From Nitrospinota bacterium (GTDB taxonomy: Bacteria; UBA8248), in the NCBI GenBank assembly GCA_030754595.1, contig JASLZZ010000079.1:9880-73879 (forward strand): a stretch of 64,000 bases of DNA, written 5' to 3'. This document shows positions 33,996-55,995 of the stretch, one piece after another (positions within the stretch are counted from its first letter, which is position 1; each line of letters opens with the position of its first letter). The position numbers were made by a program, and so were the translations under genes. The notes below the pieces were generated by a model, which made no database searches, had not been told where the DNA came from, and saw only the letters and a list, made by a program, of their open reading frames with translations.

Positions 33996-34763
33996 CTAGC
34001 GGCTTTCGGGCCGCCCCCCCCTGCCGAACCGCCGCGCCAGTTCGGCGAACACCTCGCCCGGCGGAACATCCTTCGTGGCCAGCGCCACCAGCGAATGAAA
34101 CCATAGGTCCGCCGTCTCGGCGACGATCTTCTCGCGGGTCTCCTCCCGGATGGCCCGCGCCACCTCCCCGGCCTCCTCCTCGACCTTCTCGAGGATGCGC
34201 CCCTCGCCCCGCTCGAAGAGCCGGGCCACATAGCTCCCCCCGGTCTCCCCCGCGTCGCGGCGGCTCAGGATGAGCCGGTAGACCAACTCCAGCAGATTGT
34301 GATCGAAGGTGAATTCCCCCGCCGGTGAGCTTCCGCTCGGGGGGCCGCCGCCCGGAGCGCTTTCGCCGCCCGGGGGGATATCCCGGGTCGAAGCGCCGCC
34401 GGATACCTCCAACTCGTTGAAAAAACACGACATTCGCCCAGTATGGCATACTGGCCCATCCGGCCGCACAGAGAAGAGCAGGGCGTCCCCGTCGCAATCG
34501 AGGCTCGCCGATACGAGCCTGAGAAAATTCCCTGAGGTCTCGCCCTTGTGCCAGAGTTCCCGGCGCGAGCGCGACCAGAAGTGAACCGTCTTTTTCTCGA
34601 GGGTGAGGCGCAGCGACTCCTCGTTCACCCAGGCGAGCATGAGGACCTGGCCCGTCCCCGCGTCCTGACAGACGGCGGCGGCCAGCCCGCTCTCGTTCCA
34701 GTTCACATCGGGGGGATTTACTCCCGCAGGTTTTTCTTCGTTCACAACCTGACCTCCATTCAC
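33996..34763 (-). CDS. hisIE: Bifunctional PR-AMP cyclohydrolase / PR-ATP pyrophosphatase
   Basis: [27 protein letters not shown], then KVEEEAGE and ETADLWFH. Alternative in-frame GTG at 34745. Confidence 0.95.
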
Positions 34764-35530
34764 AACCTGACTTCCACTCCCCGCTCCTTTAAGTAAAGTT
34801 TCGCCTCCTCGACCGTGTACTCGCCGAAGTGAAAGATCGAGGCAGCCAGCGCCGCCTCGGCTCCGGCCACGGCGAGTCCGTCGTAAAGATGCCCCAAACC
34901 CCCCACCCCGCCCGAGGCGATCACCGGCACCGGCACATTATCCGACACCGCGCGTGTGAGAACGAGATCGTAGCCGTCCCGCGTGCCGTCGCGGTCCATG
35001 CTCGTGAGCAATATCTCTCCCGCCCCGAGGCGGGCCGCCTCGGCGGTCCAGGCCACCGCGTCTTTTCCGGTGGGCTTCGAGCCCCCGTGCGTGAACGCCT
35101 CCCAGCGCAGGGGCTCGCCATCGCCCGAGACCCGCTTGGCGTCCACCGCGCAGACGATCGTCGAACTGCCGAAACGCTCGGCGCTCCGCTTCACCAAGCC
35201 GGGGTCCCTGAGGGCGGCGCTGTTCATGCTCACCTTGTCGGCCCCGGCGCGGAGGAGGTCCCGCACATCGTCCTCGTGACCGACGCCCCCGCCCACCGTG
35301 AGGGGGACGAACACCCGCTCGGCCGTCCGCGAGACGACATCGAGCAGGGTCTTCCGCGCTTCCTTAGAGGCCGTGATGTCGAGAAAGCATATCTCGTCCG
35401 CCCCCATCGCGTCGTAGGCCGCGGCGCACTCGACCGGGTCGCCCGCGTCGCGGAGGCCCTCGAAATTAATCCCCTTGACGACGCGGCCCTCCTTCACGTC
35501 GAGGCAGGGGATGATCCGCTTCGCCAGCAT
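34760..35530 (-). CDS. hisF: IGP synthase cyclase subunit
   Basis: [32 protein letters not shown] and ASIFH. Confidence 0.98.
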
Positions 35531-35609
35531 TAAAGAGCCTCCAGCCCCGCCTTGAGGGAGAGCTTATCGGAATCATCCATCATCGCCCGCGCCAGCGGCT
35601 TGGCCAGCA

Positions 35610-36329
35610 TCACACCCGCTCCAGCGCGGCCTTGAGATCGAAGGTGCCCTCGTAGAGCGCGCGCCCGACGACCGCCCCGGCGACGCCCGCCTCCGCCAGC
35701 GGCAGTAGCCTGTCGACATCCTCCATCCGGCTGAAACCCCCGGCGGCGATGACCGGAACCTCCACCGCCCGCGCCAGCGCCTCGGTCGCCTCGGGGTTGA
35801 ACCCCTCGAGCATGCCGTCCCTCGATATGTCGGTGAAGACGATTCCGGCGAGCGGCCGGCCCCGGAAGCGGGCGGCCAGTTCCTCCGGCGAGACGCCCTC
35901 GCCCTCCATCCAGCCCGATGTGCGCACCTCGCCGTCCCGCGCGTCGATTCCGAGGAGAATTTTCCACGGATTCTCCCCGGCGGCCCGATCAAGAAACTCC
36001 GGGTTCTTGAGGGCGCTCGTCCCCAAGATGACGAAACCCGCCCCGGCCTCCAGGACAGCGCGGAGCGAGTCCATCGACCGCACCCCGCCGCCGAACTGGA
36101 CGGGGACGCCGGCCCTGGCCGCCACCTCGGCCAAAACTTCCAGATGTTGGGGGCTTCCCTCGAAGGCGCCGTCGAGGTCGATCAGGTGGAGCCGCTTCGC
36201 GCCCAGGTTCACCCAGTGGAGCGCCGAGGCCACCGGGTCTGCCCCGTAGACGATCTCGCGCTCTTTTTGCCCCTGAATCAGGCGAACGCACTTGCCGCCC
36301 TTGAGGTCCACCGCTGGAATGATGAGCAA
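35610..36329 (-). CDS. hisA: ProFAR isomerase
   Basis: IIPAVDLKGGKCVRL.QG, LIDLDGA, QFGGGVR and TDISRDG. TTG 36329 has a GGAGG RBS. Confidence 0.96.
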   Translation of the reverse strand: MLIIPAVDLKGGKCVRLIQGQKEREIVYGADPVASALHWVNLGAKRLHLIDLDGAFEGSPQHLEVLAEVAARAGVPVQFGGGVRSMDSLRAVLEAGAGFVILGTSALKNPEFLDRAAGENPWKILLGIDARDGEVRTSGWMEGEGVSPEELAARFRGRPLAGIVFTDISRDGMLEGFNPEATEALARAVEVPVIAAGGFSRMEDVDRLLPLAEAGVAGAVVGRALYEGTFDLKAALERV

Positions 36330-36331
36330 AA

Positions 36332-36826
36332 TCAGTGCCCTCCACGCGCCGGAAGATATCCCCCCGGCGAAAGCGTTAGAGATGGATAAACCCATTCGGG
36401 TGGGATTGCAAGGTGAGATTGAGAATGAGAGGGAGAGGACCTTCCGGGCGGCCCCTCGGCCCGGAGGGCGGCCGCGCCCGGAGAGAAAATTCGGCGCCCG
36501 GAGGGAAGATTCGGCCCGGGCGGAACGCTTATTTTTTGCCGGAGCCGGTTTCGGGGGGGGGGGTTCATCCACAAATCGCCGGCGCTGCCCATCATCATCC
36601 CCATGCCGAGGGGCATACCCATCCCCGGCGGGGACATCATGAACATCATCATCCCCGAGGGGCTTTGTCCCCCATAAACGCCCTCGGTCGTGAACGACAC
36701 CACCGCCGGGACCACATAAGAAGAGGTCAGCAGCATCCGCCGCACGAACTCCCGCCTCGTCTGGGCTTCCTGTTCTGGAGCCGGCTCCGTGGAATCGTTC
36801 CCGTCCCGCCCGTCCATCTCGCTCAT
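36332..36826 (-). CDS. Small hypothetical protein: Tat-like/double-Gly leader plus Met-rich segment; C-terminus depends on a C11 tract
   Basis: GGAG RBS; TRREFVRR motif, hydrophobic LLTSSYVVPAVVSF, EGVYGG, then GMMMFMMSPPGMGMPLGMGMMMG. Confidence 0.7.
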   Translation of the reverse strand: MSEMDGRDGNDSTEPAPEQEAQTRREFVRRMLLTSSYVVPAVVSFTTEGVYGGQSPSGMMMFMMSPPGMGMPLGMGMMMGSAGDLWMNPPPRNRLRQKISVPPGPNLPSGRRIFSPGAAALRAEGPPGRSSPSHSQSHLAIPPEWVYPSLTLSPGGYLPARGGH

Positions 36827-37082
36827 TTCAAATACTCCGTAACCAAAATAGCGGCCCGCTCATTTGTCGGCTTAAACGTAAACGGGGGGAATTGCAAATG
36901 GGAGGGGGAGCCCGAAAAGTTGTCAGTGAGCGAGGGTGAAGCACGACGCTAAGGAACTGCTTGGACGGGTAGGCACGTAGATTCTTCGCTATCGCTCAGA
37001 ATGACAGACAAACCGCTTCAAACCAGAAAGGGGGGATGCCTTCAGGAAGGAGCGGTGCTCCCAGTTCGAGCTTTTACCCTTC

Positions 37083-37730
37083 CTACCCGCAAACCCCGGC
37101 GAAGCGCTTCAATATCTCAAGTCCCCTTCCCCCGCTTTTTTCGGGGTGGAACTGGGTGGCGAAAAGGTTGTCGCGGCGGACGGAGGCGATGAAGGGGACG
37201 CCGTAGGCGCAGGTGGCGGCGATGAAGGGGCGGCAGGGCTCGCTCACCTCGGCGTAGTAGGAGTGGACGAAGTAAAAGTGCTGGCCCTCGGTGGCGGGGT
37301 CCAGGACGGGGGATTCGTTTTCGAGGTGGATGCCGTTCCAGCCCATGTGGGGGACGCGGATGTCTCTTGATGCGCCGGGCTCGCGCGCGCCGGCGGGAAA
37401 TTTAAGGATGCGCCCCGGCAGGATGCCCAGCCCCGGCGTCCGGCCGAACTCCTCGCTCGCCTCGAAGAGGACCTGAAGGCCGAGGCAGATCCCCAGATAG
37501 GGTACCCCGCGCGCGACGGCCTCCTTGAGCGGGCCGGCCAAGCCGGCAGCGTTCAGGGCGCCCATGCACTCGGGAAAACCGCCGACGCCGGGGAGGATGA
37601 TCCCGGCCGCGTTTTCAAGGTCGGCCGGGTCGCCCGAGAGCCGGGAGGCGGCGCCGATGCTGGCGAGTCCGTTGGCGACGCTCCGCACGTTGCCCATGCC
37701 GTAATCGACGACGACGATGGAGGGGGCCAT
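37083..37730 (-). CDS. hisH: IGP synthase glutaminase subunit
   Basis: VVDYGMGN, LPGVG, GICLG.Q, VPHMGWN, YFVHSY and QFHPEKS. Confidence 0.97.
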   Translation of the reverse strand: MAPSIVVVDYGMGNVRSVANGLASIGAASRLSGDPADLENAAGIILPGVGGFPECMGALNAAGLAGPLKEAVARGVPYLGICLGLQVLFEASEEFGRTPGLGILPGRILKFPAGAREPGASRDIRVPHMGWNGIHLENESPVLDPATEGQHFYFVHSYYAEVSEPCRPFIAATCAYGVPFIASVRRDNLFATQFHPEKSGGRGLEILKRFAGVCG

Positions 37731-37918
37731 CGGTGTCTCCAAATAAATTCCTTGCAGGAAACAATCTGTGAAAAAATTTAAATCAAAGAAGAATCATGCC
37801 GCCGGGCCGCCGGGATTCATGCCGCCTCGCAAGGGCCGTGACACCCCCCGGAGCGGGCTGTCACCCCCCGGAGGATTAGGTCATGCAACCCCGCAGGCAT
37901 CACCCGGCCCGGGACGGG

Positions 37919-38521
37919 CTAGAGGACGCCCTTCGTGCTGGGCACGCCCGTCTCGCGCAGATCGAGGGCGGCGGCGGCGCGGAGCGCGCGCGCGAAGACC
38001 TTGAAGACGGCCTCGACCATGTGGTGGCTGTTCTCGCCGTAGCGGACCTCTATGTGGAGGTCGATGCCCGCCTGGGTCGCCAGCGACCAGAAAAACTCGC
38101 GCACCAGCGCGGTGTCGAACTCGCCGATCCGGGCCTCCGGGAAGCGGCCGCGAAAGACCAGATTCCCGCGCCCGCCGGCGTCGAGGGCGACGGAGACGAG
38201 GGCGTCCATCATCGGGAGGCTCAGGCTCGCATAGCGGGTGATTCCGGCGCGGTCGCCGAGCGCCTTGGCGAGCGTCTGGCCAAGCAGGATGCCCACATCC
38301 TCGGCGGTGTGGTGGCCGTCCACGTCGATGTCGCCCTTCCCGCACACACTCAGATCAATCAGTCCGTGCCGGGCGATCTGGCTGAGCATGTGGTCGAAAA
38401 AACCGAGGCCGGTTTTCACCGAGGCCTTTCCCTTGCCGTCGAGATCGACGGATATCGTGAAATCGGTTTCCTTGGTCTTCCGGCTCGCCTGGGCCTTGCG
38501 GCCCGTTTTTTTAGCCGCCAC
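37919..38521 (-). CDS. hisB: Imidazoleglycerol-phosphate dehydratase
   Basis: [29 protein letters not shown] and PSTKG. GTG start with GAGGAGG RBS. Confidence 0.98.
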
Positions 38522-44773: not shown

Positions 44774-44902
44774 CCACCAGGAAAGGGACCGAACTCCGGC
44801 CCTTCCAAGGGGGAAAAACGGAAATTCGCGGCGTAACGGCCGACCGGAGCCCCGCCTAACGCGACCACTTCCCCCCCCCCTTCAACAGAGCAAGGAGAGA
44901 GC

Positions 44903-54928: not shown

Positions 54929-55989
54929 CTAGCCAAACGCGCGGATTCCCGTTTCGTATCCCGCGATGATCAGCTTTTGAATCTGGCTGGTCCCCTCGTA
55001 GATGGTCGCCACGCGGGCATCGCCCATGTAGCGCTCGACCGGGAACTCGTTGCTGTAGCCCATGCCCCCGTGAACCTGTATCGCGTCGTTGGCGCACCGG
55101 AGCGCCGTCTCGCTCGCGAAATATTTCGCGATCGAGGTTTCCTTGGTGTTGGGCGCTCCCGCGTTCTTGAGCTCGCCCGCCCGGTAGACCAAGAGGCGCG
55201 AGGCGTCGATATCCACCACCATGCGGGCGATCACTTCCTGGACGAGTTGATGGGCCGCGATGGGTTTGCCGAAGGTGCGGCGCTCATCGCCACCTTGAAC
55301 CCGTCGCCCACCTCGCCCAGCAGAGCCTCGTCCGGAACCTCGACCCCGTCGAGATAAAGCTCGGCCGTGTTCGAGCTCCTGAGACCGAGTTTTCCCCCCG
55401 TATTTTTCGAGGTGAATCCCGGGGTATCGGTCTCGATCAGAAAAGCCGCCATCCGCCGGGGGTTTTCCCGATCGGTTTGTGCGATGACGAGGGCGAGCCG
55501 GGCGAGGCCGCCGTTGCTGATCCAGATTTTCCGCCCGTCGAGCCGCCACCCCCCGTTGGTTTTTTCCGCGAAGCTCCGGATATGCTGGGCGTCCGAGCCG
55601 ACGTCGGGCTCGGTCAGCCCCAGACAGCCGAGCCACTCGGCCGAGCAGAGCCGGGGGAGGTATTTTCTTTTCTGCTCGCCAGAGCCCCATTTCAGGATTG
55701 TCGAGGACACGAGGGACATCTGAACGGAAAGAACGGTCCGCACGGAGCTGCAGGCCTTGCTGATTTCCTCCATCAGCACGGCGTAGGAGATGTAGTCCAT
55801 ACCCGCGCCGCCGTACGCCTCGGGGATCACCCCGCCGAAAAACCCGAGCGCGCCCGTCTCCTCGACAATCCCGGCGGGAAACCGCCCGTCGATATCGTTT
55901 TGCCGGGCGACGGGGGCGATCCGGGTGGCGGCGAATTCGGCGGCCGTCTCCTTGAGGAGCCGCTGGGCTTCGTTGAGTTCGAAATCCAC
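54929..55989 (-). pseudogene. Acyl-CoA dehydrogenase with an internal frameshifting deletion
   Basis: The N-terminal part (PEAYGG, GLTEPDVGSD, KIWISNG, KLGLR, GFKVAMS) and the C-terminal part (ERRTFGKPI, QVHGGMGY, IYEGTSQI) are in different frames, and the intervening helix is absent. Confidence 0.88.
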
Positions 55990-55995
55990 GGAGGG

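Follow-up and report, generated by a model that had tools for sequence, protein, structure and literature searches.

A small gene in the histidine operon of a Nitrospinota bacterium represents an unannotated family of putatively exported, mostly methionine-rich peptides

A conserved small gene between hisH and hisA

The histidine (his) operon contained in a 64,000 nt stretch of contig JASLZZ010000079.1 from a Nitrospinota bacterium (this whole 64 kb stretch is the window referred to throughout) harbours, between hisH and hisA, a conserved small gene whose product belongs to an unannotated family of small, putatively exported and mostly methionine (Met)-rich peptides. The unusual features of the family are a leader matching the consensus for export by twin-arginine translocation (Tat) and a pattern in which the leader is conserved and the tail variable. 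The his genes lie on the minus strand, as do all features of the locus described here, in the order hisG, hisD, hisB, hisH, gap, hisA, hisF, hisIE. Matches above curated NCBIfam cut-offs identified hisH, hisA, hisF and hisIE, and hisG, hisD and hisB were assigned by eye from their translations. An earlier note, made from the letters alone, had described a gap of about 750 bp between hisH and hisA containing an open reading frame (ORF) with its own GGAG ribosome-binding site, and this description was borne out. The gap is 753 bp long, with hisH as the upstream neighbour (37083..37742, TIGR01855, E 9e-60) and hisA as the downstream one (35610..36329, TIGR00007, E 1.3e-72), the latter most likely starting at the TTG at 36329, going by its alignment with a related locus. 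The ORF list places an ORF of 164 codons at 36332..36826, and the GGAG (36835..36838) stands 8 nt 5′ of its ATG.

The related locus, L001, is contig JAVEPB010000229.1 of a metagenome-assembled genome (MAG). Its gene order, hisD-hisB-hisH-[94-codon gene]-hisA-hisF-hisIE, is that of the window, and the GGAG is conserved in it. Over 86 aligned codons the ratio of replacement to synonymous substitution rates (dN/dS) between the two peptide genes is 0.32, compared with 0.09-0.22 for four his genes of the same pair. Within residues 18-58 there are eight synonymous differences and no replacement. The earlier note had allowed for an absence of homologues or of purifying selection; 52 homologues were found, along with the purifying selection against L001. 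Because of the synteny, the purifying selection, the conserved ribosome-binding site and the database homologues, this is, on the evidence of sequence comparison, a genuine, conserved small gene. We also weighed a role as attenuator or regulatory leader peptide for hisA, and rejected it because selection acts on protein motifs across the 52 homologues. A further candidate locus, L002, was a chance match, a 42-codon antisense ORF having only the region of the RR motif in common.

The conserved product is shorter than the open reading frame

The earlier note took the gene to run to 36332, giving a protein of 164 amino acids (aa), and this did not hold. The conserved coding part consists of codons 1-91 (Met1-Pro91, 36554..36826) in the frame of the ATG, and aligns with homologues of 80-98 aa. 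It is followed by the window's longest homopolymer, a run of 11 bases (36553..36563) that are C on the coding strand and G on the plus strand, at which the ORF departs from the conserved frame. L001 has no such run, and in the DNA alignment the window is one base longer there. In the shifted frame, the conserved C-terminal codons and stop follow directly (36529..36552, stop at 36529-36531) and translate as ETGSGKK, whilst the close homologues stop soon after a G-D-L-W motif and end in ETGPGKK or ETDPGKQ. The extension comprising residues 92-164 (36332..36552) has no counterpart in L001, with which the 100 bp past the conserved stop do not align either, and is common only to the near-identical database protein P0001 (99% identical and of the same 164-aa form).

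Because the ends of the homologues match the shifted frame and no alignment with L001 exists, residues 92-164 are taken as read-through and are probably not conserved coding sequence. From these alignments the 164-codon ORF is an over-long frameshift read-through of the 3′ end of the gene and of intergenic DNA, and the conserved product is predicted at about 98 aa. The read-through ends 2 nt before the start of hisA, to which we give no meaning because, at this G+C content, 73 codons in a row would lack a stop with a probability of about 0.2, by our own estimate and not as a tool result. The change of frame at the 11-C run may be an assembly error, a real frameshift or slippage in tract length; it touches only the last 7 conserved residues.

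Two minor observations concern the same region and the same kind of sequence. Just 3′ of the conserved stop lie two tandem 20-nt units (36474-36513) that are 90% identical; L001 lacks them, its spacer being shorter and unrelated. The second-longest homopolymer of the window, 10 C on the plus strand at 44871-44880, falls between the stop-to-stop ORFs that contain rho (from 44903) and rpmE (to 44725).

A family with a conserved leader and a variable tail

The window protein has five close homologues. A profile of five close sequences gave 10 matches at E<=1e-3 in a set of 1.84 billion representative proteins, and a wider one, built from 12 sequences, recovered 52 proteins from 4,819 candidates at E<=0.01. 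In the counts below the family comprises 51 database members and the window protein, that is 52 sequences; left out are P0001 (the twin of the window protein), the 30-aa fragment P0009, and two long repeat proteins, P0007 and P0010, that were rejected as relatives. P0010 is an NHL-repeat protein whose repeated S-G-D-L-W-V had matched the G-D-L-W region. The weakest nine (P0047-P0055, E>1e-5) align over the leader only and may be merely similar signals. Family proteins range from 58 to 164 aa, or from 58 to 120 aa apart from the read-through P0001, and those with names are each a 'hypothetical protein' of Nitrospinota, Candidatus Tectomicrobia or an unclassified 'bacterium', encoded in MAGs. 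Neither the window protein nor any other member matched a Pfam or NCBIfam family above its cut-off. The sole Pfam line for the window protein, Flavi_NS4A at E 0.034, was rejected as a chance match to low complexity. The family profile found nothing at E<=1 among the sequences of the PDB, and no longer (fused) forms were seen among 7,999 scored candidates, which is weak evidence. Full-text searches, which covered open-access literature only, returned no description of the peptide family.

Homologues with a conserved leader and a variable core, which the earlier note had predicted, were recovered by the profile search and assembled in a 51-sequence alignment, A3. Its mean column identity is 23%; Arg24, Phe27 and Pro40 are invariant, at least 90% of sequences retain Thr23, Arg25 and Tyr37, and position 28 is also among the invariant or near-invariant leader columns. 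The sole such column in the tail is a near-invariant Pro66. Members begin with a variable, polar N-terminus, mostly of about 10-25 residues and up to about 47 in the longest. Then comes R-[RL]-[EQ]-F-[IV], found in all 52 sequences (with R-L in one), so that the predicted conservation of the RRxF motif is confirmed; S or T precedes it in 48 of the 52, and R or K usually follows. An uncharged stretch holding [YF]-x-x-P-x-x-x-x-[FLY] is likewise universal (52/52).

The tail is hypervariable. The Met-rich core of the earlier note stands for 36 of the 52 sequences, which have at least 4 Met in the tail; it fails as a family trait, with 0-3 Met in the other 16. Met-richness is a majority trait and not family-wide. 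M-M-S-P recurs in the Met-rich tails, whose ends include G-N-M-W-K and G-M-L-W-S. The low-Met tails include Lys/Ser-rich ones, three that are His-rich instead (P0046-P0048, all weakly matching) and one with a PEP-CTERM sorting domain. Trp occurs within the last 15 residues of 31 of the 51 members. In two cases, paired members list a longest contig of the same length (P0012 and P0015, 3707 nt; P0049 and P0055, 1471 nt); these are maybe tandem paralogues.

A putative Tat-type export signal

The elements that had been picked out in the translation (T-R-R-E-F-V, V-Y-G-G and 11 Met in residues 59-79) are all present. The codons of T-R-R-E-F-V-R (residues 23-29, 36740..36760) encode a motif that is conserved family-wide and that matches the Tat consensus S/T-R-R-x-F-L-K at the boundary of n- and h-region along its full length, beyond the RR alone. 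In 106,416 six-frame residues the 7-residue Tat-type pattern is seen once, where 0.29 occurrences are expected; this count alone is weak, and its weight comes only from the conservation in homologues. Following the motif is an uncharged, h-region-like stretch of 17 residues (residues 31-47, 36686..36736; mean Kyte-Doolittle hydropathy 1.38) that holds Y-x-x-P-x-x-x-x-F. Across the family this stretch measures 12-38 residues; in several members its 12 residues, with Lys on either side, could not span a membrane.

A strict A-x-A, the type of site cut by signal peptidase I, follows the h-region within 16 residues in 21 of the 52 sequences. The double-Gly leader proposed in the earlier note, with processing at GG, was not upheld. 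GG is present only in the window protein, P0002, P0003, P0004 and P0032, and P0005 and P0006 have G-Q; the other members carry A-x-A-type or other small residues there, and no C39 peptidase/ABC gene was found in the window or in L001. A lipoprotein was also rejected, as there is no Cys. The PEP-CTERM domain of one member (E 3e-6 in Pfam, 7e-6 in NCBIfam) implies export for that member.

At E<=1, 17 of the 51 members gave sub-threshold matches (best 1.9e-4) to the N-terminal portion of TIGR02811, a family of small Tat targets ('formate dehydrogenase region TAT target'), and 4 of the 51 did so to TIGR01409 (best 0.024). When eight members were scanned one by one, TIGR01409 scored at most 14.5 bits (for P0012), its cut-off being 16.7. 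TIGR02811 proteins are likewise small (<100 aa) with a Tat-type N-terminus, and the two matches shown aligned to profile positions 2-39 of 66; the resemblance is in the signal only. However, all member scores were far below the 48.45-bit cut-off of TIGR02811, the window protein had no match and no formate dehydrogenase genes lie nearby. In the ESM Atlas, the nearest named clusters are small subunits, one with a Tat signal in its automatic name, at scores of 0.82-0.85; these are leads only, 0.9 being the level above which a match is more than a lead. We take the other two nearest clusters to be Tat-exported as well. The Tat system is described as tolerating unstructured hydrophilic cargo of up to 100-120 residues (PMC6708511, in the part of that paper available). 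Export, cleavage and the Tat route are inferred from the leader sequence.

The mature peptide and a possible role in Cu(I) binding

The Met-rich core (residues 59-79, 36590..36652) has Met at 11 of its 21 positions. No other window ORF comes close to this density: the remaining 557 six-frame ORFs of 60 aa or more reach 5 Met per 21 residues at most. Near the C-terminus the codons of G-D-L-W (residues 83-86, 36569..36580) form a conserved aromatic motif, in which G83, D84 and W86 are invariant in five close sequences. The predicted mature part, of about 46 residues, contains 12 Met, 10 Gly, 7 Pro and 5 Ser, only 4 charged residues and no Cys or His. AlphaFold2, run with the 51-sequence alignment, gave a mean predicted local distance difference test (pLDDT) score of 58 and a predicted template modelling (pTM) score of 0.18. 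The only helix, at residues 24-34, is in the leader. The peptide is therefore predicted to be mostly disordered, with no fold beyond the leader helix, which agrees with the earlier expectation of a mostly unstructured chain. The tail alone, as an ESM Atlas query, gave no usable match.

The Met-rich core is bounded by 13-nt perfect direct repeats spaced 54 nt apart (36590-36602 and 36644-36656). P0004, an 80-aa homologue, has an in-frame deletion of exactly 18 residues, matching that spacing. The Met tract therefore grows and shrinks between close relatives by repeat slippage.

We tentatively favour a function as a Tat-type exported, signal-cleaved, disordered Met-rich peptide that transiently binds Cu(I) in the periplasm, of which the metal-binding step is speculative and drawn by analogy. 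The analogy is to CueO, and the His-rich tails of a few weakly matching members also point that way. The precursor would begin with a polar, acidic N-terminus. Next would come the Tat-type signal, made up of T-R-R-E-F-V-R and a short stretch of moderate hydrophobicity, and then, near residues 45-53, a probable site for signal peptidase. The rest would be a disordered peptide of about 45 residues that consists mostly of Met, Gly, Pro and Ser and closes with G-D-L-W and a short tail containing Lys. It would cross the inner membrane via the Tat route, or else via Sec, and the signal would then be removed. The free thioether-rich peptide might bind Cu(I) or other soft metal ions transiently and serve as a periplasmic buffer or hand-over chaperone, and the conserved Trp may assist, as in Met/Trp Cu(I) sites. 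The gene carries a ribosome-binding site and a promoter-like box of its own. Because its place between hisH and hisA has been retained within the lineage, it is probably expressed with or beside housekeeping genes.

Comparable Cu(I)-recruiting Met clusters occur as 'Mets' motifs in Ctr1-type transporters. The multicopper oxidase CueO, which is exported by Tat, likewise has a Met-rich domain, with partly disordered Met clusters (MxM, MM, MxxM) that recruit Cu(I) transiently, according to the accessible part of PMC11494321. However, the Met tract of CueO is an insert in a large enzyme, and here it is essentially the whole mature product. SilE and PcoE use His together with Met. They too are small disordered periplasmic proteins, proposed as soft-metal binders or 'sponges' (PMC5008109, partial text). 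In contrast to these components of sil/pco resistance operons, the peptide described here lacks both His and Cys, and its gene has no resistance genes around it.

Several points weigh against a Cu(I)-binding exported peptide. The window allele is frameshifted and a second window gene, encoding an acyl-CoA dehydrogenase, is broken, so that the window copy may be decaying or the assembly may be imperfect. Scanning the 45 other ORFs of the 64 kb window revealed no copper, Tat or other partner genes. No curated Tat-signal model (TIGR01409, Pfam TAT_signal) matched at its cut-off, the window protein having no match at all, and the subgroup of the window protein lacks A-x-A, with only sites of V-Y-G or S-F-T type. 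For an unfolded chain, passage through Tat might be impeded by a hydrophobic stretch of the M-M-M-F-M-M kind. Moreover, the leader is conserved beyond the needs of a signal peptide, with Y-x-x-P-x-x-x-x-F throughout the family, and the low-Met tails of 16 members mean that Met is not the whole story for the family.

Alternative functions

The main alternative, unlikely but worth weighing, is that the exported peptide is a sacrificial oxidant sink, scavenging hypochlorite and other reactive chlorine or oxygen species in the periplasm by oxidation of its Met residues. A periplasmic methionine sulfoxide reductase would then re-reduce it, as YedY does for MrpX. MrpX of Azospira suillum is a small, signal-bearing periplasmic peptide with 20% Met and no enzymatic domain, whose function lies in its Met side chains and which is oxidised by hypochlorite (PMC4436054, in the portion available). 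With 12 Met in its predicted mature part of about 46 residues, the peptide described here reaches an MrpX-like Met content of about 20% or more. Moreover, Nitrospinae are among the phyla likeliest to carry chlorite dismutase, which makes chlorine oxyanion chemistry relevant (PMC9751292, from an excerpt). However, the same portion of PMC4436054 gives MrpX as 44% charged and places it in a yedYZ-mrpX operon under SigF/NrsF. Our peptide has 4 charged residues in 46, is rich in Gly, Pro and Ser, carries a Tat-consensus leader and is encoded within a his operon. The window contains no msrP/yedY, msrQ or sigF-nrsF, and more generally no methionine sulfoxide reductase gene among its other ORFs. No NCBIfam or Pfam family is common to MrpX and the peptide, the two having been compared by description and curated-family scans. 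The Met tract is also missing from 16 of the 52 homologues.

The product could also be the precursor of a RiPP (a ribosomally made peptide with post-translational modifications) matured in trans, although this is decidedly improbable. The conserved leader of 30-35 residues, including Y-x-x-P-x-(I/V), would be recognised by an enzyme encoded elsewhere, the hypervariable tail would be the core peptide, and the RR motif may or may not also route the product via Tat. A near-invariant leader joined to tails of unrelated classes (Met-rich, Lys/Ser-rich, His-rich, PEP-CTERM) is what such a system would show. Y-x-x-P, present in 52 of the 52 sequences, is presumably comparable to the Y-x-x-P-x-L recognition motif of lasso-peptide leaders. 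The two contig pairs of matching length noted above would, if verified, fit tandem paralogues. RiPPs bearing signal peptides exist, namely the bufferins, whose precursors are small and carry an export signal at the N-terminus, which are destined for the periplasm and which act in copper homeostasis (PMC11626156, available part), much as is proposed for the present family. However, bufferins as described there have Sec signals, a predicted fold, conserved Cys residues that are converted to thiooxazoles, and adjacent MNIO/DUF2063 genes. The window peptide has no Cys in residues 1-91, no predicted fold and no DUF2282 match, and no MNIO (DUF692) gene is in the window.

Further evidence speaks against maturation as a RiPP. 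The earlier note's remark that the window holds no maturation enzymes or dedicated transporter is confirmed for the 45 other ORFs, among which there are no RiPP-maturation or ABC-peptidase/transporter genes, and it extends to L001. In particular, neither the 64 kb window nor about 9 kb of L001 has genes for a RiPP recognition element (RRE), a radical-SAM enzyme, an MNIO, a cyclase, a protease or a transporter. No curated RiPP-precursor model matched the 51 members at E<=1, among the 25 listed of 27 families. There is no Cys, Ser/Thr patterns in the tail are not conserved, and an acidic residue suitably placed for a lasso ring is missing. The portion of the open-access literature that is searchable holds no natural RiPP with a twin-arginine leader, and apparently only engineered or heterologous lanthipeptide systems.

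Export and recognition might be combined in a cassette system, which we regard as equally improbable. A Tat-type leader of 30-35 residues, conserved well in excess of targeting needs (T-R-R-E-F-I-R/K, then Y-x-x-P-x-x-x-x-F in 52 of 52), would be read by a dedicated partner encoded elsewhere (a leader-binding chaperone or an RRE), and hypervariable short cargoes (Met-, His- or Lys/Ser-rich) would be loaded or modified in the cytoplasm and then exported by Tat. Were this true, the Met-rich members would be disposable peptides that leave the cell with Cu(I), or the first natural Tat-routed RiPP-like peptides.

It is a more doubtful proposition that the conserved N-terminal module is itself the functional part, as a small membrane-associated or chaperone- or translocon-binding protein, with the tail as a spacer or tuning element whose Met-richness is secondary. 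Selection is indeed concentrated on residues 18-58, without replacements against L001, and on the invariant leader residues, and tail length varies by repeat slippage even between close relatives (18 residues fewer in P0004). However, the uncharged stretch is only 12-17 residues long in many members and contains Pro, which would make a poor stable membrane span. The Met tract and the near-terminal aromatic motif recur in three divergent subgroups, which argues that selection acts on the tail too.

Finally, a chance ORF or a dead gene without function in this organism would be in keeping with the frameshift at the homopolymer, the second broken gene and the ease with which high G+C produces long spurious ORFs, but is very hard to believe given 52 homologues, synteny and purifying selection against L001, a conserved ribosome-binding site and the loss of only the last 7 conserved residues to the frameshift.

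Significance of the family

Small exported peptides are routinely missed or mis-called in MAGs, as with the 164-aa automatic ORF and the conserved product of about 98 aa seen here, and the present family has gone unannotated in bacteria of the Nitrospinota and of Tectomicrobia type. Among the Nitrospinota are major marine nitrite oxidisers, some of them from oxygen-deficient waters. If the peptide is a Cu(I) buffer or an oxidant scavenger, it would be a minimal, gene-cheap element of trace-metal or oxidative-stress physiology. The peptide would, in addition, provide a natural example of a Tat motif of textbook form heading a tiny unfolded cargo, and so bear on folding proofreading by Tat. The pattern of conserved leader and variable tail offers a tractable test of whether Tat-type leaders double as recognition sequences.

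Neighbouring genes, repeats and non-coding elements

The other 45 window ORFs scanned are housekeeping genes. These include the dcw cluster, rpoD, dnaG, mutS2, his, folate and purine genes, murA-like, prmC, prfA, rpmE, rho, coaE, the glycine cleavage system (gcv), beta-oxidation genes, lspA and ileS. The broken acyl-CoA dehydrogenase gene lies at 54929-55995 on the minus strand. Its N-terminal and middle domains are in the ORF 55231..55995, and the C-terminal domain is in another frame (54929..~55288) and begins at profile position 39 of 150, about 38 residues being missing. This is either an internal deletion or an assembly fault.

Two copies of a 25-nt direct repeat, which reads TTGCAAT...TTTA on the coding strand, bracket the peptide gene. 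They share 76% identity, lie 486 nt apart and are both conserved in L001. The upstream copy (36873-36897) is a candidate promoter of the peptide gene, and the downstream copy (36387-36411), 5′ of hisA, is a candidate hisA promoter or insertion scar; the pair may thus represent duplicated promoters or the scar of an insertion. A sigma-70 consensus scan called no promoters, and so did not call the 25-nt repeats. Three terminator-like sites showed no excess over shuffled sequences, Rfam gave no matches at E<=1 in 35500-38000, and the post-stop region and the conserved upstream element folded no better than shuffles (z = +0.65, +0.34, -0.76). We make no claim for a terminator or a structured RNA.

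Between hisH and the peptide gene lies a conserved non-coding block (36900-37030), which contains GTCATTCTGAGCGATAGCGAAGAATC and an imperfect long hairpin with arms at 36927-36941 and 36984-36998. The block is single-copy in the window and is kept in L001, and the sequence just past the hisH stop (~37045-37075) is not kept. The block itself has no Rfam match and folds no better than shuffles. We presume it to resemble a short intergenic element of many bacteria. At the far end of the operon, the HisI-HisE fusion (33996-34763, minus strand) has a Gly/Pro/Ser-rich interdomain linker that is, by eye, about a dozen residues longer than that of L001, and is thus another length-variable, low-complexity stretch in the operon.

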